Of a stretch of DNA of 64,000 nt, positions 1,574-54,486 are shown in pieces. The stretch spans positions 329,049-393,048 of the forward strand of contig JACKGO010000001.1 in NCBI GenBank assembly GCA_020631975.1, written 5' to 3'. Position 1 is the first letter of the stretch. Every line of letters starts with the position of its first letter. Under the pieces are notes generated by a model. That model ran no database searches. It was given only the letters and a program-made list of their open reading frames with translations, and was not told the origin of the DNA. Made by a program: the position numbers and the translations under genes. Origin of the DNA: Candidatus Nomurabacteria bacterium (GTDB taxonomy: Bacteria > Patescibacteriota > Saccharimonadia > Saccharimonadales > CAIOMD01).

Positions 1574-2386
1574 CTACCGTGTAGTTGTATGGCTATTGAT
1601 TATATGTGAGCGCTTCTTAGTATTATTTGTGCGCTTTTGCTGAAACGGACGTTGTTTTATATCTTTAGATGCTACTGTTTGATTCTTAGCCTTAATGGTT
1701 GGTTGAGAAACCTTTTTCGCAAATAGCATTTTTCCTGCTACGGTTTGATGCGATTTATTTATCGTTACCTGTATTGATTTACCAATGTCTTTAATTGCCC
1801 CATCAACAACGACCATAGTACCGTCGTCTAGGTAGCCGACCCCTTGATCACGGTTGGTACCAGATTGCAAAATTGTCACATGCGCAGTTTCTCCCGGCAA
1901 CGCTACTGGTCGGACAGCGTGGGCGAGCTCATTAACATTAAGCACGGTGACACCTTCTATGGTTGCTACCTGATTGAGATTGTAATCGGTGGTAAATAAC
2001 TCAGCAGATGTCAATTTGGCAAGTGCTACAAGGTTTTCATCAGTTGTTACCTTGCCCGGTTGTGTTTCGTCTATTGTGACGTCTAGCTCAGCGTCATTTT
2101 GTAATTGCTGCACGACATTCAAGCCAAAGCGAGCGCGCTCACGTTTATAGCTATCACGGCCGTCAGCCAATAATTGTAGTTCTTTAACAATAAATTGTGG
2201 AACAATGATTTTTTTAGGCATAAACCCTATTTTGGCGAGCTCAATGACCCTTCCATCTATCAGCGCACAGCTGTCCAAAATAACACTACTTGCACCACCA
2301 GTAGGTTGCGTGATTTTTTTACGTGGTTTTTTATATACTAAAACTACTATTAATAAGAGAAGTCCAATAATTATTATATCTGTCAT
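1574..2386 (-). CDS. PIN/TRAM domain-containing protein (YacL-like), N-terminal TM helix
   Basis: ILDSCALIDGR...ELQLLADGRD is PIN-like and the C-terminal region is TRAM-like. It is adjacent to radA, as yacL is in Firmicutes. Confidence 0.7.
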   Translation of the reverse strand: MTDIIIIGLLLLIVVLVYKKPRKKITQPTGGASSVILDSCALIDGRVIELAKIGFMPKKIIVPQFIVKELQLLADGRDSYKRERARFGLNVVQQLQNDAELDVTIDETQPGKVTTDENLVALAKLTSAELFTTDYNLNQVATIEGVTVLNVNELAHAVRPVALPGETAHVTILQSGTNRDQGVGYLDDGTMVVVDGAIKDIGKSIQVTINKSHQTVAGKMLFAKKVSQPTIKAKNQTVASKDIKQRPFQQKRTNNTKKRSHIINSHTTTR

Positions 2387-2388
2387 GG

Positions 2389-3756
2389 TTAGCCTTTCAT
2401 CAGCGTGTCGTTAAGGATTGTTTTTATGTTTTTTGCTTCTTTATATTGTAGACCAGAATTTGTTTGCGACTTTTGTAATCGTGGACCAATAACACTTGTG
2501 AAACCCATTTTTTGGGCCTCTTGAATGCGTTTTTCTAGCCATGGTACATGTCGCACCTCTCCACTTAAACCTACTTCGCCAAACACCACAGCATCTGTAC
2601 TTAGTTGCATGCCTTTCGCTGCTGAAGCAATCGCCATGCATATAGCCAAATCGGCAGCGTTTTCAGTTATTTTTATGCCTCCAACTATATTGATATAAAT
2701 GTCTTTGTCAGAAAGCTTCAGCTTGGTTCGGCGCTCAAGCATTGCAACAAGCAAATTAAGTCGGTTTAGATCAAACCCAGATGCTGCACGCTTAGGATAG
2801 CCGTAGCTTGTTGTATTAACGAGTGCTTGTACTTCTACTAGTATTGGCCTTGTGCCTTCTAGGGTTGCGAGCACGATAGAACCGTCACTGATTTGTCGCT
2901 CTGAAAGTAATGCTGCTGATGGATTTGTAACGACATGCAGACCCTTATCGGACATCTCTAGAATGACTGCTTCGTTTGTAGAGCCGAACCTATTTTTTAT
3001 GCCTCTTAAGACGCGAAATCCTGCATATCGGTCACCCTCTAGCTGCAATACGACATCCACTAAGTGTTCAAGAACTTTTGGGCCTGCGATAGAACCTTCT
3101 TTTGTAACGTGCCCCACCAAGATAACCGCAGTATTGGACTGTTTAGCTGCCAGCGTAATCAGTTGAGCACTGTTCGTAACTTGGCTGACTGAGCCGGGCA
3201 CACCAGTGATTTCATCTGTTGCTAATGTTTGCACTGAATCGACAATAACCACATTGTATTCACCAGAAACAATCGTAGTAGCAATGTCGTTTGCGCTGTT
3301 ACTGGTTGCTATAACTACGTTTTTATCTATTGCACTGCTAATACGCTTGCCTCTCATGGCGACTTGTTCTGCTGACTCTTCACCACTTACGTATAGAAGC
3401 GAGCTAGTCTGTGCAATTGCATACGCAAGTTGTAGTAGTAACGTGCTCTTTCCTATACCAGGTTGTCCAGCTAGCAGTGTCACGCTACCATGTACTAAAC
3501 CACCACCTAACACCTTGTCTACATCAGCCACACCAACAGGTATTCTGTCTGAATGGCTGACTGCGGTCTGCTCATTGATAGTTGTTGCTTTAAGCACGCT
3601 TCCGCTATGGACTGCTTGTTGGCCTTTTGTGCTGCCACGAACGTCTAGCACTTGCTGGATAGTGTTCCAGGCGCCACACGTAGCACACTTACCACTCCAG
3701 GATCCGTATGCTTCTCCACAATCACTGCAAACATATTTTGTCTTAGCCTTTGGCAT
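2389..3756 (-). CDS. radA: DNA repair protein RadA/Sms
   Basis: N-terminal zinc ribbon CSDCGE...CATCGAWNT, Walker A GQPGIGKST, Lon-like C-terminal domain, 455 aa. Confidence 0.95.
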   Translation of the reverse strand: MPKAKTKYVCSDCGEAYGSWSGKCATCGAWNTIQQVLDVRGSTKGQQAVHSGSVLKATTINEQTAVSHSDRIPVGVADVDKVLGGGLVHGSVTLLAGQPGIGKSTLLLQLAYAIAQTSSLLYVSGEESAEQVAMRGKRISSAIDKNVVIATSNSANDIATTIVSGEYNVVIVDSVQTLATDEITGVPGSVSQVTNSAQLITLAAKQSNTAVILVGHVTKEGSIAGPKVLEHLVDVVLQLEGDRYAGFRVLRGIKNRFGSTNEAVILEMSDKGLHVVTNPSAALLSERQISDGSIVLATLEGTRPILVEVQALVNTTSYGYPKRAASGFDLNRLNLLVAMLERRTKLKLSDKDIYINIVGGIKITENAADLAICMAIASAAKGMQLSTDAVVFGEVGLSGEVRHVPWLEKRIQEAQKMGFTSVIGPRLQKSQTNSGLQYKEAKNIKTILNDTLMKG

Positions 3757-3775
3757 AACGATTAGTGTACCATTT

Positions 3776-4756
3776 TCATTCGTAGTATTGATATTTACTA
3801 TCGATACTATTTACCAGGTCTTGTTGCCTGTCTACTGTGCTATTGTACTCTTGAACCAGTTTATTATACTCTGCGATTAACTGTTTAAGACTGCTTATTT
3901 TTTGATTATATGCCTCAACTTGTTGATTGTAGCTAGGCACCAATGCGTTATATTCTGCGAATTTTTTTTGGGAACGGTATGCTTCTAGTTGGCGTTTTGT
4001 TTCTAGTAGCGCTGCTTCATCTTCACCTATTTGAGCTTCTTGCTGCGAGATTTCTGATTTACGTAAGGCTAAATCACCATTGATGCGCTGTGTGTCACTT
4101 TTTGCTGTATCAAACACAGCTTCGTAACTTTCTGAAAGTGCTACAACTTTCTGTCTATCAGAAAAATACGTACGATAATACTGCTCTAATTGTGGGTCTA
4201 GTGAGGCAACTTCTGTGCCTAAAATAGAATGCATCTCGTTTGGTACGACGGACGGGTCTTTATCTTGGTATCCTTTTATGAGCTGCAGTATTCTTGGATT
4301 GTTGATTTTCGTAACCATAGTCGCCGTCATTTCATCTACTTGTTGGCGCTGCTTGGGGCTTAGTCTGTCGTATGCAGCATGGAGCATTTCGTGCGAAGCA
4401 GTTACCTCTTTAATGCCTGCGAGCTCCGGTTTTTGCACATTATAAATGTATATATCGGTGTCTTTATTAAAATCAAATCCTGTATAGCACCCTAGTACAA
4501 TTGTTGCTTCGCTTGATGTACAAACGCTATTAAACTCAGCCTGCTCAGTTATTTTAGGCACATGTGAGTAAAATATCTCTGCGCCCGTTTCGTTCATGCC
4601 GCTATCTTTTGCTAATTGTACGATTTCTGGGCTAGGTGTGTAAGAACGGAGTACATACGCATCAAATATTGTAAACCGGTTAAACCACACAAACACAATA
4701 GACACTACCATAGCGATAAAAACTGTTGTCCATAGCCATTTAACTGTCCGTGTCAT
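3776..4756 (-). CDS. Hypothetical membrane-anchored protein with HEMLH (HExxH) motif and long C-terminal coiled coil
   Basis: 326-aa ORF with an N-terminal TM helix, the motif TASHEMLHAAY, and a Q/E/K-rich heptad-like C-terminus. I recognise no family. Confidence 0.6.
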   Translation of the reverse strand: MTRTVKWLWTTVFIAMVVSIVFVWFNRFTIFDAYVLRSYTPSPEIVQLAKDSGMNETGAEIFYSHVPKITEQAEFNSVCTSSEATIVLGCYTGFDFNKDTDIYIYNVQKPELAGIKEVTASHEMLHAAYDRLSPKQRQQVDEMTATMVTKINNPRILQLIKGYQDKDPSVVPNEMHSILGTEVASLDPQLEQYYRTYFSDRQKVVALSESYEAVFDTAKSDTQRINGDLALRKSEISQQEAQIGEDEAALLETKRQLEAYRSQKKFAEYNALVPSYNQQVEAYNQKISSLKQLIAEYNKLVQEYNSTVDRQQDLVNSIDSKYQYYE

Positions 4757-4777: not shown

Positions 4778-7249
4778 TTATTCGTGGATTACACTAAACG
4801 TAAGTAGTTTTTTATCTGTAGTAACAGTTATTACGTCACCTGCCGTAAAAGTTCCGTCTAATATATTATCCGCCACTGGATCTTCGATTTCATCTTGAAT
4901 GGCTCTGCGCATAGGGCGTACTCCGTTGTGTACATCGTAGCCTTTTTTTAGTAGCCAGTTTTTGGCAGCTGCGCTTAAGTGTATGCCAATTTTTTGGCGC
5001 TGCAAACGTTGGGCTAATTCATTAATTTGAACATCAATAATTTTACGCACAGCTTGTTTGTTGAGCGCTTTAAAGACGATTATTTTATCTATACGATTAA
5101 TAAGCTCTGGACGCATATGCTTTTTCAGTTCTTCTTTTACTTTTTCGCTATTTTCGGCATGGAGTTCATCGACAGATTTATCATTTGCCTTGCTGGCAAA
5201 GCCAAGGTTAACCTCTTTTTGCAACAACTTAGCACCAATATTACTCGTAAGCATGATAATCGTATTCCTAAAGCTCACCTTACGACCTTTTGCATCTGTG
5301 AGTTCGCCGTCTTCAAAAATCTGCAGAAGCATATTAAATACTTCAGGGTGCGCTTTTTCTATCTCATCAAATAACACAAGGCTATACGGTTGGCGACGAA
5401 TTTTATCAGTTAACTGACCACCTTCTTCGTACCCTACATAACCAGCTGGGGCGCCAACTAAACGTGCCACTGTGTGGCGCTCACCAAATTCACTCATATC
5501 AATTTTAATCAGTGCATCTTCTTTCCCAAAAAACTCTCGTGCCAGGACACGCGCAAGCTCAGTTTTCCCTACACCTGTTGGACCCATGCACATAAATGTA
5601 CCGATTGGTCTTTTTTCACTCCCTACACCAGAACGATTTCTTCGTATAGCCCGTGCAATAGCATTAATTGCCTCTTCTTGCCCAATTACATAGCGGCCGA
5701 GGTGTGATTCTAATTTTAGAAGATTTTTCGCCTCTTGACGCATGAGTTTTGTAAGCGGAATCGACGTTGCTTGATGTACTACCCTCGCAATGTCATCACC
5801 GCTAAGTTCTAGTCGCTTATGCTTGCCCAGCTTGCTTTTTAGTTCATCAAGACGTGCCTGTGCCGCACTAATACGTTGTTTATATTTTGCGGCTTTTTCG
5901 TAATCTTCTTGCTCTACTGCATCATCACGACGAACAGTAAATAAGCGTATTTCTTTTATAAGTTGACGATATTCTTTAGGTGTTTTGCCTTTATCTACGC
6001 GCAATAATGCGGCTGCTTCATCAAGCAAATCAATTGCCTTATCCGGCATATAGCGATCACTTATGTATCTATCGGCAAAATATACCGCGTCTTCTATCGT
6101 TGCATCAGAAATACGAACACCATGGTAATCTTCGTAGTGTTTTTTAAGCCCTTTTAAGATTGCGAGCGTTTCTGTGGTAGTGGTCGGTGGTATAACGACA
6201 GGTTGAAAACGTCGTTCGAGCGCAGCATCTTTTTCTATATGTTTATGATACTCGCTCGTCGTCGTGGCGCCGATGACTTGTATTTTGGCACGCGCAAGCG
6301 CAGGTTTAAGTATATTCCCTGCATCAATAGCTCCTTCTGCCGCCCCAGCGCCAACGAGAAGGTGCATCTCATCAATAAATATAATAATTTTTCTATCTGC
6401 CATTAGCTCGTCCATAACCTTTTTTAGGCGCTCTTCAAACTCACCACGGTATTTGGTACCGGCAATCATGGCAGCTAAGTCTAATACAACAATGCGTTTT
6501 TCTAGTAAGCTGTCAGGTACCTCTTCTGCAACAATTCTTTGAGCAAGGCCTTCTACGACGGCTGTTTTACCAACCCCAGGTTCTCCAATCAAAACAGGGT
6601 TATTTTTACTCCTGCGGTTTAATATCGTGATGGTACGTTTTATAGCGTCTTCTCTACCAACAACCGGATCTAGCTTATCTTCAGCTGCGAGAGCCGTCAG
6701 GTCACTCCCAAATACATCGAGAACACTTTTACCACCTTTGCGACGTGACTTAGTTGCCGTGCGTTTGCGAGATTGGTCTGAATCAAACTGCTGCTTCTGC
6801 AAAAAGTCATCAAAAGAATTCAACAATTTATCAGTATTGATATTCATATCTCTAAGCAGTACTGTCGCACGTGAATTTTTTTGTTGCAAAATACTAAACA
6901 CAATGTGCTCGGTCCCACACATGTCTTGGCCGTAATCTTGTGCGTAATCCCAGCTCACCTTGAGTGCTAATTTAGCGGTTTCGCTGAGACCTTTCGCACC
7001 AAGATTAATGACGAGATTTTTAGGAGTTAGGTTAAGGGCTAGCTGGGCTCTCTCATAGGAAACGCCTGCTGTGGTGAGTATTTTAGAAGCTACTGAATTG
7101 TCTTGAGCCAATACTCCCAGAAGTATGTGTTCAGTGCCGACATATGCCGAACCTTGCGTACGTGCAACATGATCAGCATGTTTTAGGCTCATAAGGGCAT
7201 TATCAGTCAGGTGGTTCAGAAATTCTTGCATATCTTGTGACTCATTCAT
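4778..7249 (-). CDS. clpC: ATP-dependent Clp protease ATP-binding subunit ClpC
   Basis: 823 aa with two Clp_N repeats, two AAA+ modules (GEPGVGKT, GPTGVGKT), a short UVR-like linker (EQEDYEKAAKYKQR) and an LGF loop. Confidence 0.92.
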   Translation of the reverse strand: MNESQDMQEFLNHLTDNALMSLKHADHVARTQGSAYVGTEHILLGVLAQDNSVASKILTTAGVSYERAQLALNLTPKNLVINLGAKGLSETAKLALKVSWDYAQDYGQDMCGTEHIVFSILQQKNSRATVLLRDMNINTDKLLNSFDDFLQKQQFDSDQSRKRTATKSRRKGGKSVLDVFGSDLTALAAEDKLDPVVGREDAIKRTITILNRRSKNNPVLIGEPGVGKTAVVEGLAQRIVAEEVPDSLLEKRIVVLDLAAMIAGTKYRGEFEERLKKVMDELMADRKIIIFIDEMHLLVGAGAAEGAIDAGNILKPALARAKIQVIGATTTSEYHKHIEKDAALERRFQPVVIPPTTTTETLAILKGLKKHYEDYHGVRISDATIEDAVYFADRYISDRYMPDKAIDLLDEAAALLRVDKGKTPKEYRQLIKEIRLFTVRRDDAVEQEDYEKAAKYKQRISAAQARLDELKSKLGKHKRLELSGDDIARVVHQATSIPLTKLMRQEAKNLLKLESHLGRYVIGQEEAINAIARAIRRNRSGVGSEKRPIGTFMCMGPTGVGKTELARVLAREFFGKEDALIKIDMSEFGERHTVARLVGAPAGYVGYEEGGQLTDKIRRQPYSLVLFDEIEKAHPEVFNMLLQIFEDGELTDAKGRKVSFRNTIIMLTSNIGAKLLQKEVNLGFASKANDKSVDELHAENSEKVKEELKKHMRPELINRIDKIIVFKALNKQAVRKIIDVQINELAQRLQRQKIGIHLSAAAKNWLLKKGYDVHNGVRPMRRAIQDEIEDPVADNILDGTFTAGDVITVTTDKKLLTFSVIHE

Positions 7250-16692: not shown

Positions 16693-19600
16693 TTAATGTA
16701 ATTTTACAGCGTCGTCGCCAACTACGTTGGCCAAGGCTTCATGGAACCCTTCACTGTACTTAATTTTCTGAGAAAGACGTATAGGACGTTTTTTATCACC
16801 CACCACCAGAACGGTTTCTGTATTACCCAGGTGTTGTTCTAGAATCACTTTGATATCTCGCAGCACATCGTCTGTATGATGAGTTTGCAAACGAATGTAA
16901 AGACGTTTTGTCTTGGGGAGGGGTGTATCTATTGGTGGACGTGACTGGGTTTTTTTAGGTTTACCAAGCGACGTTTTTACACCAGTCGGCTGATATGCTT
17001 TAGCCTCGTCCAAACTAAGTAACATAAATGTATCTGCAATTAATTTTGGCTCAGCCATAGCATTGCCTGCTTTGTCTTTACTGTTCACTCGCCCTTTAAC
17101 AAGTACAACTTTATCTTTCACTATACTTGCACTATTTGCTTCTAGTACTCGCGGAAACACAACAACTTCTATTTGATCGCCAACAATATCTTCTACTTGT
17201 ACAAAAGCCATCGCTTGTCCATTTTTGGTAGTTATTTGACGAAGATCACTAATACTGCCTCCAATAGTTGCCGTCTTACCATCATCATCTATCCGTATCG
17301 TGGCGAGTGGCACCGCTTTTTCGGTCAATATTACGTCGTATGATTCAAGCGGGTGACTAGATAAATATAGCCCAAGAAGTTCACGTTCCCATTGCAAATA
17401 TTCATGGGTCTGATACAGCCCAGTTGATACAATTTCTACCTCTGGCTTTACTTTTGCTATCTCACCAGCGCCAAACAGATCAACCTGCCCATCAAGCGCT
17501 TCTTTACTCAATTTTGATGATACCGCTACAATTGAGTCTATACTTTCTAGCAGCGCACTTCGATCACCAAACCGATCTAGTGCACCACTTTTTATGAGAC
17601 TTTCTAGCACTTTTTTATTAATTTGACGGGCATTAGTGTGTTCGAGAAAATCCGCTAATTCATTAAACTGACCGTGAGTTTCTCTTGCAACAATTATATT
17701 TTCTACTGCATTGTGCCCGACGTTTTTTATGGCATCCATGCCAAAGCGTATAGAAGGTGCTTCATCTTGCTTGTGAGGTACTACCGAAAACTCATGAAAC
17801 GATTCGTTAACATCTGGAGGCAAGACGGTAATACCCATATGTTTACATTCGGTAATTTCAATTGCCAATCGATCTATATCATCGTAATCGCTGGTCATGA
17901 GTGCCGCCATGAAAGCTGCTGGGTAGTGTGCTTTTAAATAAGCCGTCCAGTATGCAATTAGTGCGTAGCATGCGGAGTGAGATTTATTGAAAGCATAATC
18001 AGCAAATCCCATTAAATCATCCCAGAACTTTTCCATTACATCTTTGGGTACGCCGCTATGTTCAACACCACCATCTATAAACTTTTGCTGCATCTTGAGC
18101 ATAACTTCGCGTATTTTTTTGCCAATCGCTTTTCGTAACGTATCAGCTTCACCGCCACTAAAGCCACAGACTTCTTTACTAATCTGCATGACCTGCTCTT
18201 GATAAACAAGTGTGCCGTAGGTAGATGACAAAGCGTTTTCGAACTTTTTATGTGGCACGCTGACTGCTTCTTTACCGTTTTTTCGCCGGACAAACATATC
18301 TACGAGGCCTGCTTTTAAAGGTCCTGGGCGATACAAGGCGCACATGGCAATAATATCGTTAAATTCTGTGGGCTTCAGCTCTTTTAAGTATCGTTTCATA
18401 CCAGCCGATTCTAGCTGGAACACGCCGGTGGTGTCTCCTTTGCCTAGTAACTCATATGTTTTTTTGTCGTCTAACGGTAAGGTATTTATATCTATTGTTA
18501 CTCCGTAGACTTTTCTAATGATTCTTAGAGCATTTTTAATAGTCGTTAAATTAGAAAGCCCCAAAAAATCCATTTTTAGTAGGCCAAGCTCTTCAATAAT
18601 ACCCATTGGATATTGTGTAGATACAACCCCTTTCTGAGCCATTTCTAGTGGTACATAGGACACAATATCGTTTGGTGCAATCACTACACCGGCAGCGTGC
18701 ACGCCGTGGCTTCTAATGGTGCCTTCTAGGCGCACCGCCATGTCGTACACTTCTTTTGCCTGTGGGTTAGAAGTGTATTCTTTTTTTAAGTCGTTGTTTT
18801 CTTTGATTGAAGTAGCCAGTGGCAAGTGACGGCCTTGTTGTGGTGGAGGCACTAGTTTTGCCATACGGTCGGCGTCGGCATAGGGTACTTGTAAAACACG
18901 TGCTACGTCGCGGACAGCTGCCCTCGCTGCCATGCGTCCATATGTCACGATATTTGCTACTCTGTCATCACCATATTTAGCAACGCAATATTCAATTACT
19001 TCTCCGCGGCGATTATCTTGAATGTCAATATCTATATCTGGCATACTAATGCGATCAGGGTTTAAGAATCGCTCAAATAGCAAATCGTTTTTAATAGGAT
19101 CCAGATCTGTGATATGCAAGGCGTATGCAATAATTGAGCCAGCTGCCGAACCTCTGCCAGGTCCAAACATAATGCCTTGTTTTTTGCCCCAGGCGACAAA
19201 ATCCCAAATTATTAAGAAATAGCCATTAAATCCCATGGAATCAATAACATCTAGCTCATATTCGGCTCGCGAAATTACCTCTTTCGGCAGTTGATTTTTA
19301 GCTTCTTTATGGGAAGGCTTTTTGGGTGCGTATCTCTCGGCGAGACCTTTATAAACAAGCTCATGTAAATATGATTTTTCAGTGTACTTTTTTGGCACTG
19401 GGAACTGAGGAATAAGAATATTACCTAGTTCAATTTCTATATCGCAGCGTTCAGCGACTGCTTTTGTATTGGTAATAACCTCTGGATAGTCTTTCCCCCA
19501 CCTCTGAATTATTTCTGATGGTTTTTCTACGTGTAAAGGAAAATCTTTAAGTGACATCCTTTTCTCTTCGCTCACGTATGAACCTGTACCAACGCAGAGC

Positions 19601-48267: not shown

Positions 48268-48308
48268 ATCTCATCATAGTATACGGCATCAATTTGCCGG
48301 CTTAAACG

Positions 48309-50093: not shown

Positions 50094-50125
50094 TGCAGTG
50101 TTTCTTATATTGTTTACACTGCAAT
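50092..50125 (-). promoter_or_regulatory. 10-bp perfect hairpin sequestering the ABC-exporter start codon
   Basis: The minus-strand RNA reads ATTGCAGTGT-(14 nt)-ACACTGCAAT, and the final AT are the first two bases of the ATG (50093..50091). An upstream ACACTG copy could pair with the 5' arm instead. Confidence 0.5.
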
Positions 50126-50278
50126 AATAGCACAGTGTAGCTAAGTGTAGCGTTGCCGCAGAGCACAAACAATTTAGTTTATGATCTATGGGAACGCAGG
50201 TGTTGTTGCATCCTGTCTTGACACATCGGGCATATACTTCATGCCTCTGAAGGTCAGTTCCCCCGGTTTTCTTTCCGG

Positions 50279-50410
50279 CTAGTGCTCGAGCGGGCAGATG
50301 TCGGGATCATGCCCGGTCGTTCCGCATCTTAAGCAGTTCAGCTTAATGCCTCCCATGCCCCGCTTCTTGCCCCCATTGCAATTGGGACAACAGCCTTTGC
50401 AGCTCGCCAT
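50279..50410 (-). CDS. Unannotated 43-aa Cys/His-rich micro-protein (MASCKGCCPNCNGGKKRGMGGIKLNCLRCGTTGHDPDICPLEH), zinc-knuckle-like
   Basis: ATG at 50410 and TAG at 50281..50279. GGAGGAGGTGA (50427..50417) ends 6 nt upstream of the ATG. The spacings CX2CCX2C and CX2CX4HX4C are both present. The ORF is below the ORF-track length cutoff. Confidence 0.5.
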   Translation of the reverse strand: MASCKGCCPNCNGGKKRGMGGIKLNCLRCGTTGHDPDICPLEH

Positions 50411-50613
50411 GTTACTTCACCTCCTCCAAGGTATAGTAGGTACGATAAGTAAGGGCTCGGTCGGGGGGTACGGGGGATGTGACCCCCGACCGAGCCTCTC
50501 TTGATAGCCTTTTCGGGCAGTCAAGAGGGAGGTGGTACGGAGGATCCTCGCTTGTGCGGGGCTTTTGCACGCGCTTTAGGCGTCCACTCCGTCCCCACTT
50601 GGTACAATAAACG
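50411..50613 (-). ncRNA. GC-rich, hairpin-dense segment between the tRNA-Pro 3' end and the micro-ORF (candidate cis-regulatory leader or small structured RNA; class unknown)
   Basis: Three consecutive stems are visible: 50537-42/50587-92, 50498-504/50521-27, and a perfect 14-bp stem 50454-67/50483-96. An anti-SD-like CACCTCC sits at 50534..50528. GC is about 50-65% by hand count. Confidence 0.4.
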
Positions 50614-50686
50614 TCGGGGTGGCAGGAATTGAACCTACGCTCCCGGCGCCCAACGCCAGAGCTCTACCAAACTGAGCTACACCCCG
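50614..50686 (-). tRNA. tRNA-Pro (anticodon UGG), CCA not encoded
   Basis: Hand-folded cloverleaf. Acceptor CGGGGTG/CACCCCG; D arm GCTC-AGTTTGGTA-GAGC; anticodon stem CTGGC/GCCGG with loop GTTGGGC (U33, UGG, G37); T arm GTAGG-TTCAATT-CCTGC; discriminator A. Confidence 0.92.
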
Positions 50687-50689
50687 TGT

Positions 50690-50770
50690 GATAGTGCCTA
50701 CGTTGGTGTGGTAGGCTATCTTTTTTACCGACTACGACAACAGCGCAATCAGCACAAAAGATAGTCTACC
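50690..50770 (-). promoter_or_regulatory. Three-arm alternative-pairing element immediately upstream of the tRNA-Pro 5' end
   Basis: In the minus-strand RNA, arm1 is GGTAGACTATCTTTT (50770..50756), arm2 is AAAAGATAGCCTACC (50724..50710) and arm3 is GTAGGCACTATC (50701..50690). Arm2 can pair with arm1 (14/15) or with arm3. Confidence 0.4.
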
Positions 50771-50871
50771 AAAAACCAGACCGATTCATACTTATTTTAG
50801 TTGCAACAACACCTGTTAATGTACTTGCCTATCATGGGCTAAATTTACAGCCTCACGGGCACAGCTATACC

Positions 50872-50900
50872 ATATTACAACGTTTCTACAATTTGGTCAA
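50872..50900 (-). promoter_or_regulatory. Strong sigma-70-type promoter downstream of pheT (-35 TTGACC, 17 nt, -10 TAATAT), ~180 nt upstream of tRNA-Pro
   Basis: On the minus strand TTGACC is at 50900..50895 and TAATAT at 50877..50872. Confidence 0.55.
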
Positions 50901-50915
50901 GCCTTATTACGCTTG

Positions 50916-53426
50916 CTATATACGTTTCGCGTTATACGCCTTGGCGACTTCTGACGTCGCTTTTTCTACTAAGCTAGTAAGTTCTTGGGTAGTCATAGTG
51001 CGCTCATGATTGCTCATACTAAGCCGGAACGTGTAGTTAATGTGACTATCTGTTTTATAACTATCTATGGCAATAAGTGAATAAATTGATTTTTCTGGAA
51101 TATGCTGGGCAATTGCTTTCTGAAGCGAAGTAGAAATCGTGGCAAAGAGCATACTACTATCTACCTGTAGGGTAATATCTTGGTTTATAGAGGGGTATTT
51201 TGGTAGCTGCACATACCGTTTAGGAGTGCCTAGCGAGTGTTGTAAAAGAGGCACAATATTCAGTTCAAAACCTGCACAATAGCTTGGGAGTTTAAGCTTT
51301 TTCATTGTTTTGGCTTGTAATTCACCTACTACACCCAATGTTTCGCCGTCATCAGTCGCAATGACTGCACTACGCGTTGCTAGGAAAGGTTGCGACATAT
51401 CATTAGCTGGCTGGTTTGGCACGTCTGTAAAAGGAGTAAATGTAGCTTTAATGCCGAGTTTTTGTAACACACCATTAAGATACTCTTTTGCATAGTAATA
51501 TGGTTCGCCTTCGTAGTTTTTACGTTTCTTTTCGTCAGCCGCAAATACAAAAGCGAGGTTTTCATGTTCTATTGGTAAACCATCTTCTGCCACATACTGC
51601 TTAGAATGGGCTTTACCTATTTCAAATAAAGCAAATTCACCATAACCAGCTTTTATGTTTAGGTGAACCTTTTCTAGCACACTTGGTAAAACGCTCAGGC
51701 GATAGTACTGCAAGCGGGGGCTTAGGGCATTACTTAGTTTGTACGCATTACTTATGTCTTGATTAGACGCTTCTATGAGATCGCTATGCACAAACGTATA
51801 GGTAAGAAGTTCATTTGCACCCATGGCTGCCAAGGTGTGCCGTAGAGTTTCTTTAAAGTGTATTGAAGTATTCTTTTTGGCAGGTTTAGCAATGCGGGTT
51901 GGCAAGGCAATAGGTAACTTTTCATAACCATAGAGCCTGCCGACTTCTTCTACAATGTCTTCTTGTAAACGAATATCCCGGCGCCAAAATGGTACATGTA
52001 TGGTAATTGCATCGCTATGAACATCTACCTTACATTCTACGTTCTCTAATAATTGTGCGATTTGCTGGGCGCTTAGTTGTGAGCCTAAGCGAGTGTTTAT
52101 AAACTCTGCAGTAGTGCTGACGGGAGCCAATGGCACTACGGTGTCATCTTTATAGTCAACTACCGAACTAGCCAGTTGACCCCCTGCAATGCTTTGGACC
52201 ATTTCTGTTGCTTTGTGTAATACTCGCAGATTTTGCAAAGGGCTTTGCCCTTTGTTAAAGCGTGTTACGGCGTCTGTGAATAAACCATATTTCATGGCTG
52301 TACGCCGTATGTTGTACATATCAAAATTAGCACATTCAAGAACGATGTTTTTGGTCGTTTTGTCTACTTCTGTTTCGCTCCCACCCATAACACCACCTAT
52401 ACCAATTGGTGTATCATCAGCGCAGATAATTACCGTAGCATCATCTTGCATCATCACATCTTTACCGTTTAATAGTGCAATTGATTCTCCCTTTTTAGAT
52501 AGGCGCGCTCTAATGACGGCTTTTTTGGTGCCACTCTTTGCAATCAGTTTATCGTAATCGTATGCGTGTAAGGGCTGCCCCGTTAAGTGCATCAACCAAT
52601 TAGTAATGTCTACAATATTATTAATTGGTCGCAAGCCCACCCTACTTAGATCGGACTGCATCTGCAAGGGGCTAGCAGCCACCTGCACGTTTTTTAAGAC
52701 TATCGCACTAAAGCGTGGCACCAGTGGTGTGTCTACTGCAACTTGTAGTGGTAGATCTGTAATATTATTGAAAGTAGGATCCTGGCTATACCACTGTGGG
52801 CTTATAAAAGCTTTCTGCTGAATACCGGCAAGTTCACGCGCAACACCAAGCACACCAAAACAATCAGGTCGGTGTGTAAACATTTTATTTTCGCAATCTA
52901 CAACATCATCATCTAAGTTATATAAGCTTACAAAAGGGGTACCAGCTGGGACGTCTTCTGTAATTACTAATATACCGTCATGATCGTCACTTAGCGCAAG
53001 CTCAGCAGGACTGGCGATCATACCATTGCTACGTAGACCACGTAGTTCACGTGCACCAAGTACAAATGGTTCTTTGTCGTCGGCGGTGCTCGGTACAATT
53101 ACCCCTGGGGGTAGCCACACGACGGTTTGGCCAGTGGCTATGTTTGGGGCTCCACACACGACCTGTATACGTCCGTCTTGGTCACGCTCGATATCTTTTA
53201 TGCTATTGCCGTCATCCACCAAGCAAACACTTAGCTTATCGGCGTTGGGGTGTTTAACGCAGCTCACCACCTTAACAACTACTACACCTTGGTATTTTTT
53301 ACCCCACTCTATAACGTCTTCTACTGCACCAAGTTGTGCACCTATTTTTTTAACGACTTCATCTGTTCCAATGCTGGTGATGTCTACGTTGCTGACTGAT
53401 TGCGCCCATTTTAAACTAACATTCAT
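50916..53426 (-). CDS. pheT: Phenylalanine--tRNA ligase beta subunit
   Basis: 836 aa with an N-terminal tRNA-binding OB domain and B3/4, B5 and FDX-ACB-like regions. 1-nt gap after pheS. Confidence 0.93.
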   Translation of the reverse strand: MNVSLKWAQSVSNVDITSIGTDEVVKKIGAQLGAVEDVIEWGKKYQGVVVVKVVSCVKHPNADKLSVCLVDDGNSIKDIERDQDGRIQVVCGAPNIATGQTVVWLPPGVIVPSTADDKEPFVLGARELRGLRSNGMIASPAELALSDDHDGILVITEDVPAGTPFVSLYNLDDDVVDCENKMFTHRPDCFGVLGVARELAGIQQKAFISPQWYSQDPTFNNITDLPLQVAVDTPLVPRFSAIVLKNVQVAASPLQMQSDLSRVGLRPINNIVDITNWLMHLTGQPLHAYDYDKLIAKSGTKKAVIRARLSKKGESIALLNGKDVMMQDDATVIICADDTPIGIGGVMGGSETEVDKTTKNIVLECANFDMYNIRRTAMKYGLFTDAVTRFNKGQSPLQNLRVLHKATEMVQSIAGGQLASSVVDYKDDTVVPLAPVSTTAEFINTRLGSQLSAQQIAQLLENVECKVDVHSDAITIHVPFWRRDIRLQEDIVEEVGRLYGYEKLPIALPTRIAKPAKKNTSIHFKETLRHTLAAMGANELLTYTFVHSDLIEASNQDISNAYKLSNALSPRLQYYRLSVLPSVLEKVHLNIKAGYGEFALFEIGKAHSKQYVAEDGLPIEHENLAFVFAADEKKRKNYEGEPYYYAKEYLNGVLQKLGIKATFTPFTDVPNQPANDMSQPFLATRSAVIATDDGETLGVVGELQAKTMKKLKLPSYCAGFELNIVPLLQHSLGTPKRYVQLPKYPSINQDITLQVDSSMLFATISTSLQKAIAQHIPEKSIYSLIAIDSYKTDSHINYTFRLSMSNHERTMTTQELTSLVEKATSEVAKAYNAKRI

Positions 53427-54447: not shown

Positions 54448-54486
54448 ATGGCTTTCATTATACTACGTGTACAGATAGACATGCTA

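Follow-up and report, generated by a model that had tools for sequence, protein, structure and literature searches.

The window analysed here, a stretch of 64,000 nucleotides (nt) from contig JACKGO010000001.1 of assembly GCA_020631975.1 (Candidatus Nomurabacteria bacterium, placed in the Saccharimonadales by GTDB), carries on its minus strand, in order, pheS, pheT, a tRNA-Pro(UGG), about 200 nt at roughly 60% GC, a micro-ORF (open reading frame) of 43 codons, a further 185 nt, and the transporter gene ABC1 (50093-48309). Beyond ABC1 the same strand encodes ABC2, an RND permease, FKBP, glutaredoxin, TrxR and MarR, so that the ABC, ABC, RND order given in a first-pass annotation of the sequence is borne out by the gene arrangement. 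Our subject is the micro-ORF, which that annotation had picked out and which we refer to as the gene of the Cys7His microprotein.

The micro-ORF occupies 50279..50410 (minus strand, as for all features of the locus below), comprises 43 codons and a TAG stop, and is translated as MASCKGCCPNCNGGKKRGMGGIKLNCLRCGTTGHDPDICPLEH, with the N-terminal stretch MASCKGCCPNCNGGK. The Shine-Dalgarno (SD) sequence GGAGGAGGTGA lies at 50427-50417, leaving a gap of 6 nt to the ATG at 50410; both the frame and the SD are as first described. The peptide contains seven Cys (4, 7, 8, 11, 26, 29 and 39) and two His (34 and 43) in 43 residues, and the earlier count of eight Cys was therefore one too many, whereas that of two His was correct. 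The two patterns previously pointed out, C26-x2-C29-x4-H34-x4-C39 in the C-terminal half and C4-x2-C7C8-x2-C11 in the N-terminal half, are both present, and the C-terminal half also fits the fuller knuckle consensus CxxCGxxGHxxxxCP. The string GGAGGTGA occurs once on the two strands of the 64-kb window, before the ATG of the micro-ORF, and the pattern CX2CGX2GHX4CP has one match in the six-frame translation of the window, as against none in 200 shuffled sequences and none in 200 random ones with 58% GC. The SD and the knuckle motif are thus not attributable to chance.

Codon choice was said to be GC-rich relative to the surrounding genes, and the GC content at third codon positions (GC3) of 0.73, against 0.37 for ABC1 and 0.36 for pheT, agrees with this. 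The ORF is also unannotated, as had been stated: gene callers left it uncalled on all nine same-species contigs covering the interval. The pheT-ABC1 interval is 100% identical among these nine contigs, which therefore provide no polymorphism signal. Relatives of PheT, together with contigs that carry an identical ABC2, assign the window to an uncultured lineage of Saccharibacteria (TM7, of the candidate phyla radiation, CPR); one of these contigs belongs to the metagenome-assembled genome GCA_020428475.1. A separate local GC peak (0.55-0.56 against about 0.42) was seen at 53000-53225, inside the coding region of pheT.

Conservation of the micro-ORF in related species

We compared the window with loci encoding ABC1 orthologues of 58-69% identity. 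This gave 11 units at the species level, namely the window, L020-L024 and L085-L089, of which L089 is on a partial contig and L087 lacks an ORF. The ABC-ABC-RND synteny is kept in all related loci, and FKBP comes next wherever the stretch reaches that far. Homologues of the Cys7His ORF were found at the equivalent position, with an SD, in four species: L020 (MGKCRGCCQACNGGKKTGFAGIKLTCSRCRTTGHDPRVCPDKR; tblastn E value 2e-19), L086 (MARTWCKGCCVRCDGGRKRGFVGIKLRCSACATTGHKSTCPSR, with the start codon TTG), L022 (MPWTNQRTCNGCCTRCGGKVSNWTNCDRCKGSKHDPSPGVCPLKR) and L023 (MGWTNPPKCNGCCTKCKGTVSSRTNCDRCNGSKHDPAPGICPLKR), the last two also by tblastn. Twelve columns are invariant among the five sequences (M1, C4, G6, C7, C8, C11, G13, C26, C29, H34, C39 and P40), and the invariant Cys, Gly and Pro residues are encoded by TGC/TGT, GGN and CCN variants that differ between species. 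Among these orthologues the proportion of synonymous differences (pS) is 0.63-0.87, which is saturated, versus 0.14-0.44 for nonsynonymous differences (pN), and the ratio of the corresponding rates (dN/dS) is 0.07-0.47 where it can be calculated.

Frame conservation and synonymous-biased substitution in relatives had been proposed as a check, and both were found, which favours a protein-coding gene. This pattern of substitution indicates that the micro-ORF is a real, conserved protein-coding gene, and a genuine unannotated one, for a peptide of Cys/His metal-binding type in which the frame and 12 residues are conserved. The competing suggestion that the open frame is a by-product of a GC-rich structured RNA was right in one part, since the ORF does sit in a conserved structured RNA, and wrong in the other, since the ORF is nonetheless coding.

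Searches beyond these loci added little. The GTDB-representative relatives identified through PheT are only about 50% identical in that protein and show neither a tRNA after pheT nor a micro-ORF; at this distance they are uninformative. A pattern scan of metagenomes returned mostly chance matches, the real ones being L025 (the window species), L031 and L062 (the L024 species) and a partial L020-like locus, L068. Nothing related was found in searches of phage and plasmid DNA and protein, nor in viral contigs, with the peptide and the pattern of the conserved block A described below.

A structured RNA unit surrounding the micro-ORF

The micro-ORF lies in a unit of 0.7-1.3 kb that is present in the ten further species-level loci (in part in L089), with the same ordered modules in L020-L024 and L085-L089. 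The unit has its own promoter, TTGACC-17 nt-TAATAT (50872..50900), which a scan picked up as a promoter-like site; TTGAC(A/C)-N17-TAnnAT precedes the 5' stem-loop in every related locus that covers this place. The 5' stem-loop, SL1 (50823..50865), consists of the outer stem GCUGUGCC/GGCAAGU and an inner hairpin in the minimum free energy (MFE) fold of the unit, and separate folds of ten orthologous 5' ends mostly gave the same hairpin-in-hairpin shape. It is followed by block A (50802..50822), in which single-stranded ACAUUAAC precedes AGGUGUUGUUGCA (50814-50802), the 5' strand of a closing helix. Taken as 50822-50804, block A reads ACAUUAAC-AGGUGUUGUUG; the strict motif ACATTWACA(N)GGTGTTGT is exact in eight of the ten loci covering the block, and L086 and L087 have ACTTTTAC ahead of the same GGTGTTGT. 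A long, AT-rich hairpin, H1 (50709..50771), is predicted between block A and the tRNA-like element, and every locus covering this place has a hairpin there, although the sequences are unrelated.

On the other side of the tRNA-like element, folding predicts three GC-rich hairpins, H2 (50598-50532), H3 (50526-50499) and H4 (50496-50454), together spanning 50454..50598, in a region with a GC content of 0.55-0.63 versus 0.42 for the window. The translation initiation region (about 50411..50439) has the layout CUACUAUACCUU...GGAGGUGA...AUG, where the anti-SD CUACUAUACCUU pairs with the 3' part of the SD, GGAGGAGGUGA (50427-50417). In the full-unit ensemble of the window, the paired SD bases have probabilities of being unpaired of 0.00-0.13. 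Local, partial pairing of the SD with an upstream ACCUY element recurs in most units, whatever ORF follows; across units the mean unpaired probability of the SD is 0.12-0.50, with L085 and L021 the least sequestered.

Downstream of the stop codon, a hairpin CCGG-N8-CCGG and a G-run, CGGGGGA (50265-50259), form the right edge of the ORF slot (50259..50278), and this hairpin/G-run motif is kept in L022, L023, L024, L088 and L089. The 3' strand of the closing helix, UGCAACAACACCU (50198..50210), is paired by the fold with 50814-50802. It belongs to block D, CAACAACACCUG at 50208-50197, which is complementary to block A and aligns to L023 and L024 with 86-92% identity. The last module is the 3' hairpin SL3 (50150..50197), with an internal loop between CAUAG and UCUGCGG segments; it is the probable end of the transcript.

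The whole unit folds with -296 kcal/mol (z = -8.7), and the MFE fold holds SL1, a 13-bp A-D helix and SL3. The A-D helix is a long-range helix of 12-13 bp that closes the interior of the unit. In an alignment of nine units, 98% of the cells of the A-D helix and SL3 are paired, versus 34-50% in slid controls. Compensatory changes are seen in seven pairs, and the score was not attained in any of 500 shuffles. At the inner end of the A-D helix, two pairs show compensatory changes, including UA to CG in L022 and L088. SL3 taken alone has compensatory changes in 8 of its 18 pairs and 90% of its cells paired, versus 34-48% when slid, and again 0 of 500 shuffles reach the score. A covariance model, R1, built from block D and SL3, recovered one full-length copy per locus; the rest of the window and the distant loci L001-L009 gave none. 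An apparent second copy at 16828 was dismissed as a chance match inside a 1205-aa ORF.

In an Rfam 15 scan of the window and the ten related loci, only RF00005 (tRNA) reached its gathering score. The unit gave no match to GOLLD, ROOL, OLE, group I or II introns, RNase P, 6S or Y RNA, and at E<=10 it gave only hairpin-like microRNA noise and a 15-bit partial YrlA match on the T arm. The unit is thus apparently an undescribed structured RNA. From the promoter consensus and the structure we infer a single transcript of about 0.72 kb, which would run from about 50866 to 50150 on the minus strand.

Two other accounts of the unit were rejected. An invertible DNA switch or miniature inverted-repeat transposable element bounded by the ACAGGTGTTGT/ACAACACCTGT inverted repeat is at odds with the same orientation in all loci, with conserved modules outside the repeats, with a recombinase gene within a few kb only at L020, and with the support for pairing at the RNA level. 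A C+.G-C triple helix in the G5/C5/C5 hairpins was discarded as its loop geometry is inconsistent between copies.

C-rich loops and G-run sites

The loop of H4 carries UCCCCCG (50477-50471), and loops with YCCCCC(C)G recur in most related units, four such hairpins being present in L023. Judged from the sequence, the CGGGGGA that follows the stop codon is the exact complement of the UCCCCCG loops. The RND gene (start 46464, minus strand) and most of its orthologues have a rare G-run SD, AAGGGGGAG or GCGGGGGAG, and G5 runs number only about 20 on both strands of the 64-kb window. A contact of the UCCCCCG loop with G-runs is possible, either as a kissing interaction in cis or with a target in trans. 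Targeting of the RND SD by the C-loops was set aside, with duplex energies that are not distinctive and no covariation, and we keep it as a lead only.

A probable tRNA-Pro-derived element within the unit

The tRNA-Pro(UGG) at 50613..50686, found by both ARAGORN and Rfam (57.8 bits), is probably a tRNA-Pro-derived, tRNA-like element. Orthologous elements are located at L020 4194-4301, L022 3541-3638, L023 2465-2539, L088 2474-2544, and L024 4139-4216 and 4251-4324; seven orthologous elements score 42-58 bits on the Rfam tRNA model. Orthologues with a cloverleaf retain C1-G72 and A73, which are hallmarks of tRNA-Pro, and the D and T arms. Their anticodon arms are non-canonical, with long insertions or with loops of 6, 8 or 10 nt, and in L021 and L085 only an acceptor/T-arm minihelix is left. 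As read from the sequence, G32 and C38 of the window copy could pair, which would leave a 5-nt loop. This pattern suggests a pseudo-tRNA-Pro that has been kept for its shape, perhaps as a processing signal for RNase P and RNase Z. A group I intron in a tRNA gene, an idea taken from PMC13011429, does not account for the element: Rfam matches no intron here, the tRNA is uninterrupted, and a promoter of its own serves the unit.

An exchangeable ORF slot

The position between the SD and the post-stop hairpin is occupied by different ORFs, here called cargos, even in closely related loci. In two pairs of loci, L024/L089 (ABC1 81% identical) and L021/L085 (88%), the flanks on both sides, as far as the SD and from just past the stop, align at roughly 90% as judged by eye, whereas the ORFs are unrelated. 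The ABC1 clade of L023, L024 and L089 (79-81% identity) has three different cargos, and L021 and L085 have two. The Cys7His cargo is present in the window, L020, L086, L022 and L023; the other cargos are MAKEILCPECKGEGKKLISGMWFATCRKCKGNKIIKV in L021, MGLQGRKQQGLRTPTPTKCGACGMTYYKGNQVGHYPCPHCGK in L085, MAYKMTDKPTGLTNNKKVQCPDCKQWFYVRPEMVEKMGGAKHEGCKG in L088, MGKCGKCNDTGKYVTGGGWTGAHYCQCPVGKALKELEKKK in L089, and a 50-residue, Cys-free ORF in L024 (4629-4781). This Cys-free cargo has an internal stop in the 99.8%-identical contig L062 of the same species (5505-5654, minus strand) and may be decaying or non-functional. L087 has the unit without any slot ORF. All slot ORFs have a raised GC3, 0.51-0.83 versus 0.30-0.40 for ABC1.

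The comparison of flanks and ORFs shows, at the level of sequence, that the slot bounded by the SD and the post-stop hairpin has repeatedly exchanged its ORF within a frame that is vertically conserved in this Saccharibacteria clade. The Cys7His protein is probably the ancestral cargo, as it is found on the deepest branches of the ABC1 tree. Since the flanks are conserved while the cargo varies, the frame would supply the promoter, the 5' untranslated region, the gated SD and the 3' end.

As a separate observation, the interval around the unit is an insertion hotspot: L020 has a tyrosine integrase and an rve transposase (1978-3922), L086 an rve transposase inside the ABC-RND operon (4799-5755), and L022 (4304-4978) and L023 (3072-4892) extra genes without a Pfam match.

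Protein family and candidate metal sites

The annotation had recognised no family for the peptide, and the searches led to the same place. Pfam gave no match to the peptide at E<=0.01 or at E<=10, and none to the four orthologues at E<=1; NCBIfam and PHROGs gave nothing significant for the peptide, with no match to a bacterial metallothionein (SmtA/BmtA, MymT) in Pfam or NCBIfam. The best PDB match of the peptide was the RSV nucleocapsid protein (E = 0.13, not significant), and an index of 5.8 billion proteins returned no homologue to either the peptide or an alignment query. No protein database holds the Cys7His family because gene callers skip its ORF. A phmmer search of 1.84 billion representatives returned five proteins. 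Four of them have tandem CCHC knuckles, with scores that add up 5-26 matched stretches, and the other, P0003, is made of low-complexity repeats. One of the matches, P0005 (389 aa), starts with a stretch resembling a signal peptide and carries about ten CxxCGxxGHDDDxCP knuckles in tandem, so an acidic HDxD spacer does occur in the CCHC knuckles of an apparently secreted bacterial protein.

The spacing of the C-terminal motif had been taken as that of a zinc knuckle. This spacing proved not to be a stable feature of the family: four residues separate the His from the last Cys in the window and L020, three in L086, and six in L022 and L023. Since it varies in this way among orthologues, with CX2CX4HX4C only in the window and L020, and since there is no Pfam match to zf-CCHC (PF00098), we rejected a strict zinc knuckle. 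A DnaJ CXXCXGXG finger (PF00684) was likewise rejected, as the window peptide has no match and the L021 cargo reaches only 20.0 bits against a cutoff of 32.7. The alternative offered in the same annotation, a CxxC...CxxC zinc ribbon, fits better. C8-x2-C11 (or C4-x2-C7) and C26-x2-C29 are invariant in all five sequences, and C8, C11, H34 and C39 are available as a second site. Among the replacement cargos, four of five have a CxxC...CxxC-like or CxxC...CxC pair, and L088 has CxxC...HxxC. Eight invariant ligands, seven Cys and one His (C4, C7, C8, C11, C26, C29, H34 and C39), suggest two tetrahedral sites; most likely they would hold two Zn(II), in an arrangement that is likely to combine a CxxC...CxxC ribbon with a CxxC...H...C site.

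Relation to the exporter genes

The peptide was originally proposed to be linked to the exporter genes that follow it. Adjacency is kept, the unit being upstream of ABC1 in 11 of 11 species-level loci, yet several features separate the two. In most loci TAnnnT boxes, often TGn-extended, stand 7-15 nt before the ATGs of ABC1 and ABC2, and no SD is present. In the window, the -10-like boxes of ABC1, ABC2 and pheS lie at 50094-50125, 48268-48300 and 54448-54470 (minus strand), with forms such as TATACT, TATAAT, TAGACT and TACACT. This suggests that ABC1, ABC2 and pheS have their own leaderless-type transcripts, which are perhaps common in the lineage; genes led by an SD (the micro-ORF, RND and FKBP) are a minority in this region. 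L023 has a convergent gene of 606 aa between the unit and ABC1, L022 has an extra gene there, and L087 has the exporter genes without a slot ORF.

The ABC1 and ABC2 proteins contain ABC_membrane and ABC_tran domains only. Neither carries a C39 peptidase domain, and both proteins score far below the cutoffs of the NHLM and bacteriocin exporter models. No radical-SAM or Lan enzyme was found among the called genes of the locus, and the slot cargos have no leader in common. With no C39 domain, shared leader or maturase gene, a class II bacteriocin or ribosomally synthesized and post-translationally modified peptide precursor with a dedicated exporter was rejected. Because the ABC genes carry their own promoter-like -10 boxes, neither a cargo nor a leader-peptide role is supported, and the arrangement indicates that the micro-ORF gene is not part of the ABC/RND operon.

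Between SL3 and the start of ABC1, after a direct repeat GCTACACT...GCTACACT, there is also a perfect palindrome, TACACTG-N11-CAGTGTA (50115-50139, minus strand). This palindrome is a possible operator, and the cluster includes a MarR gene further downstream.

Discussion

Together, these observations make it very probable that a real coding gene sits inside a conserved structured-RNA frame with a swappable slot. The explanation that we favour as a whole, and consider moderately probable, is that the Cys7His microprotein gene is the coding cargo of a separate, strongly promoted and highly structured RNA. A single transcript of about 0.72 kb would be made from the strong promoter, with the A-D helix and the terminal hairpins closing and stabilising it. 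The presumed pseudo-tRNA would direct processing by RNase P and RNase Z, and the anti-SD hairpin would limit translation. The product would be a basic two-zinc mini-finger that binds RNA or protein in the cell, possibly its own RNA, and is not exported; this intracellular binding role is itself doubtful.

Several points weigh against this explanation. The window copy of the tRNA-like element fits the formal definition of tRNA-Pro, with a canonical 7-nt UGG anticodon loop that includes G35 and G36, and with C1-G72 and A73; it may be a functional tRNA. Nine of the 12 A-D helix pairs are invariant, and pairs without variation carry no weight for or against pairing. Only 11 units, one partial and one lacking an ORF, were compared, with hand-trimmed alignments of the RNA parts, and the transcript boundaries come from promoter consensus and structure. 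Ahead of ABC1 in the window, a simple scan did not detect a complete -35/-10 promoter, so some read-through from the unit into ABC1 is possible in this species. A single-sequence AlphaFold model of the peptide was poor (predicted local distance difference test score 57.7), and the function suggested for the protein is guessed from the motifs and the composition of the peptide.

Among other explanations, two place the RNA ahead of the protein. The open frame could be non-coding and have arisen by accident in a GC-rich structured RNA. Structure in the region is strong, gene callers never picked up the ORF, and by our estimate of about 0.2 per frame a 43-codon open frame is not rare at 58% GC; nevertheless, the frame, start, SD and 12 residues are kept across species in which synonymous sites are saturated, and the motif and SD are unique in the window, which makes such an accident scarcely credible. 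Alternatively, the unit could be a regulatory or scaffold RNA like RNAIII, whose C-loops pair with G-rich ribosome-binding sites and for which the micro-ORF is a dispensable passenger. This would explain why the frame persists in L087, which has no ORF, and in the L024/L062 species, whose ORF has a nonsense polymorphism, and it would give meaning to the UCCCCC(C)G loops recurring in most units, to the AAGGGGGAG/GCGGGGGAG SD on the RND gene and most orthologues, and to a GC-rich interior in genomes of 38-44% GC. We think it unlikely, because clear purifying selection on the Cys7His ORF in five species spanning the deepest branches shows that it is not a neutral passenger; moreover, the proposed pairing of loop and target lacks covariation and distinctive duplex energies, and L021 and L085 have C-loops but an AGGAGGG SD on RND.

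The remaining explanations start from the neighbouring genes. Polymorphic secreted peptides (bacteriocin-like, effector or signal) could be exported by the adjacent ABC/ABC/RND system, the diversity of cargos then reflecting diversifying selection. The constant position upstream of ABC1 in all 11 loci, a turnover between close relatives as fast as that of toxin genes, and the small, Cys-containing products would fit export, but the cargos, when read through, show neither a signal peptide nor a double-glycine leader in common, the ABC proteins lack a C39 peptidase domain and have no maturation enzyme nearby, and an invariant His with an odd number of Cys fits metal binding better than disulphides. 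Given also that the ABC genes have their own -10 boxes, that L087 keeps the exporter without an ORF and that other genes intervene in L022 and L023, export is decidedly unlikely. Translation of the micro-ORF could instead control read-through into ABC1 or sense Cys supply, as in the bmrB leader of bmrCD and in the mycobacterial poly-Cys upstream ORFs that sense Cys supply. A small ORF with a strong SD and conserved hairpins ahead of an ABC exporter resembles such a leader, as does the lack of a full ABC1 promoter in the simple scan of the window. However, about 70 nt separate the stop codon from block D and about 80 nt separate it from SL3, which puts both elements beyond the reach of a ribosome, and SL3 has no consistent U-tract. 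These distances, the -10 box of ABC1 in most loci and the convergent gene in L023 led us to reject a leader-peptide attenuator, and with conservation that extends over the peptide beyond its Cys codons, and other cargos that have few or no Cys, we regard leader function as highly improbable. Lastly, the product could buffer Zn or Cu in the manner of a metallothionein, or act as a thiol-redox switch for the redox genes nearby. Seven Cys and two His in 43 residues, the nearby glutaredoxin, TrxR and MarR genes, sub-threshold CydC/CydD (CydDC-like) matches of the ABC pair and the weakly DnaJ CXXCXGXG-like L021 cargo (20 bits, below cutoff) point this way; but the ligand pattern is fixed and ribbon-like, unlike a metallothionein-type cluster, and replacement cargos hold only four Cys, or none, in otherwise identical contexts, so that a role of this kind appears very unlikely.

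The unit may represent a new class of large bacterial RNA, specific to a Saccharibacteria lineage, in which a conserved frame of 0.7-1.3 kb built on a pseudo-tRNA-Pro serves as a stable platform, both for expression and as a scaffold, for interchangeable zinc-finger microproteins; we offer this as a tentative possibility. Such a class would have a "micro-ORF slot" and would possibly form an RNA-protein particle with its own product or act on G-run ribosome-binding sites, the one on the RND gene among them. A search of the available literature on structured RNAs, tRNA-like elements and small Cys-rich proteins of Saccharibacteria and Patescibacteria found no description of such a unit. To our knowledge, a structured RNA with an internal degenerate tRNA and a swapped coding slot is undescribed in bacteria. 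The micro-ORF illustrates how a constrained gene can be invisible to standard annotation, and the Cys7His microproteins add an orphan family to the very small gene sets of the CPR, where each retained gene is likely to count. If confirmed, the unit would give access to the RNA-based regulation of epibiotic Saccharibacteria and possibly to their conflict biology, and would be a natural example of a portable expression platform for microproteins.

Comparison with known systems

At the protein level, the window peptide matches the CxxCGxxGHxxxxCP consensus of the CCHC zinc knuckle (PF00098; retroviral nucleocapsid, Air2, Lin28, CNBP) at every residue. It differs in that the H-x4-C spacing is not kept among orthologues and in its extra N-terminal CxxCCxxC, which is invariant and therefore marks the microprotein as a two-site module rather than an 18-residue knuckle. 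Like the DnaJ CXXCXGXG finger, the microprotein has two CxxCxG-like hairpins (CPNCNGG and CLRCG) 10-15 residues apart, and the L021 cargo, CPECKGEG...CRKCKGNK, has a similar, sub-threshold likeness. Anti-TRAP of B. subtilis, a small protein built on this finger, is a tiny zinc protein produced from a structured, tRNA-responsive leader beside an efflux gene. The microprotein is likewise tiny, probably zinc-binding and next to an efflux gene, although Rfam finds no T-box in the unit.

At the RNA level, tmRNA is another structured RNA that joins a tRNA-like module to a short reading frame. We rejected this identity, as neither ARAGORN nor Rfam reports a tmRNA, the cloverleaf is complete and internal rather than formed by the RNA ends, and the ORF starts with an ATG behind a canonical SD. 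Type I toxin mRNAs such as hok and aapA1 share a long-range 5'-3' helix, an SD-sequestering hairpin and a small, fast-evolving ORF, whereas the products of the unit are hydrophilic, basic and Cys-rich, with no hydrophobic helix, and no antisense RNA gene was identified. In MALAT1 mascRNA and tRNA punctuation, as in the unit, a longer transcript contains a tRNA shape in which the acceptor, D and T arms persist and the anticodon loop is free to drift; those systems are eukaryotic or organellar, and the drift seen here is as expected for a processing signal. S. aureus RNAIII, which encodes delta-haemolysin, uses C-rich loops to pair with SD regions. The unit shares with it a large structured RNA, long-range pairing of the ends, an internal small ORF with an SD, and C-rich apical loops, but has no sequence or Rfam relationship to it, and contains a probable pseudo-tRNA and an exchangeable ORF. 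Although a member of none of these systems, the RNA most resembles dual-function RNAs such as RNAIII.

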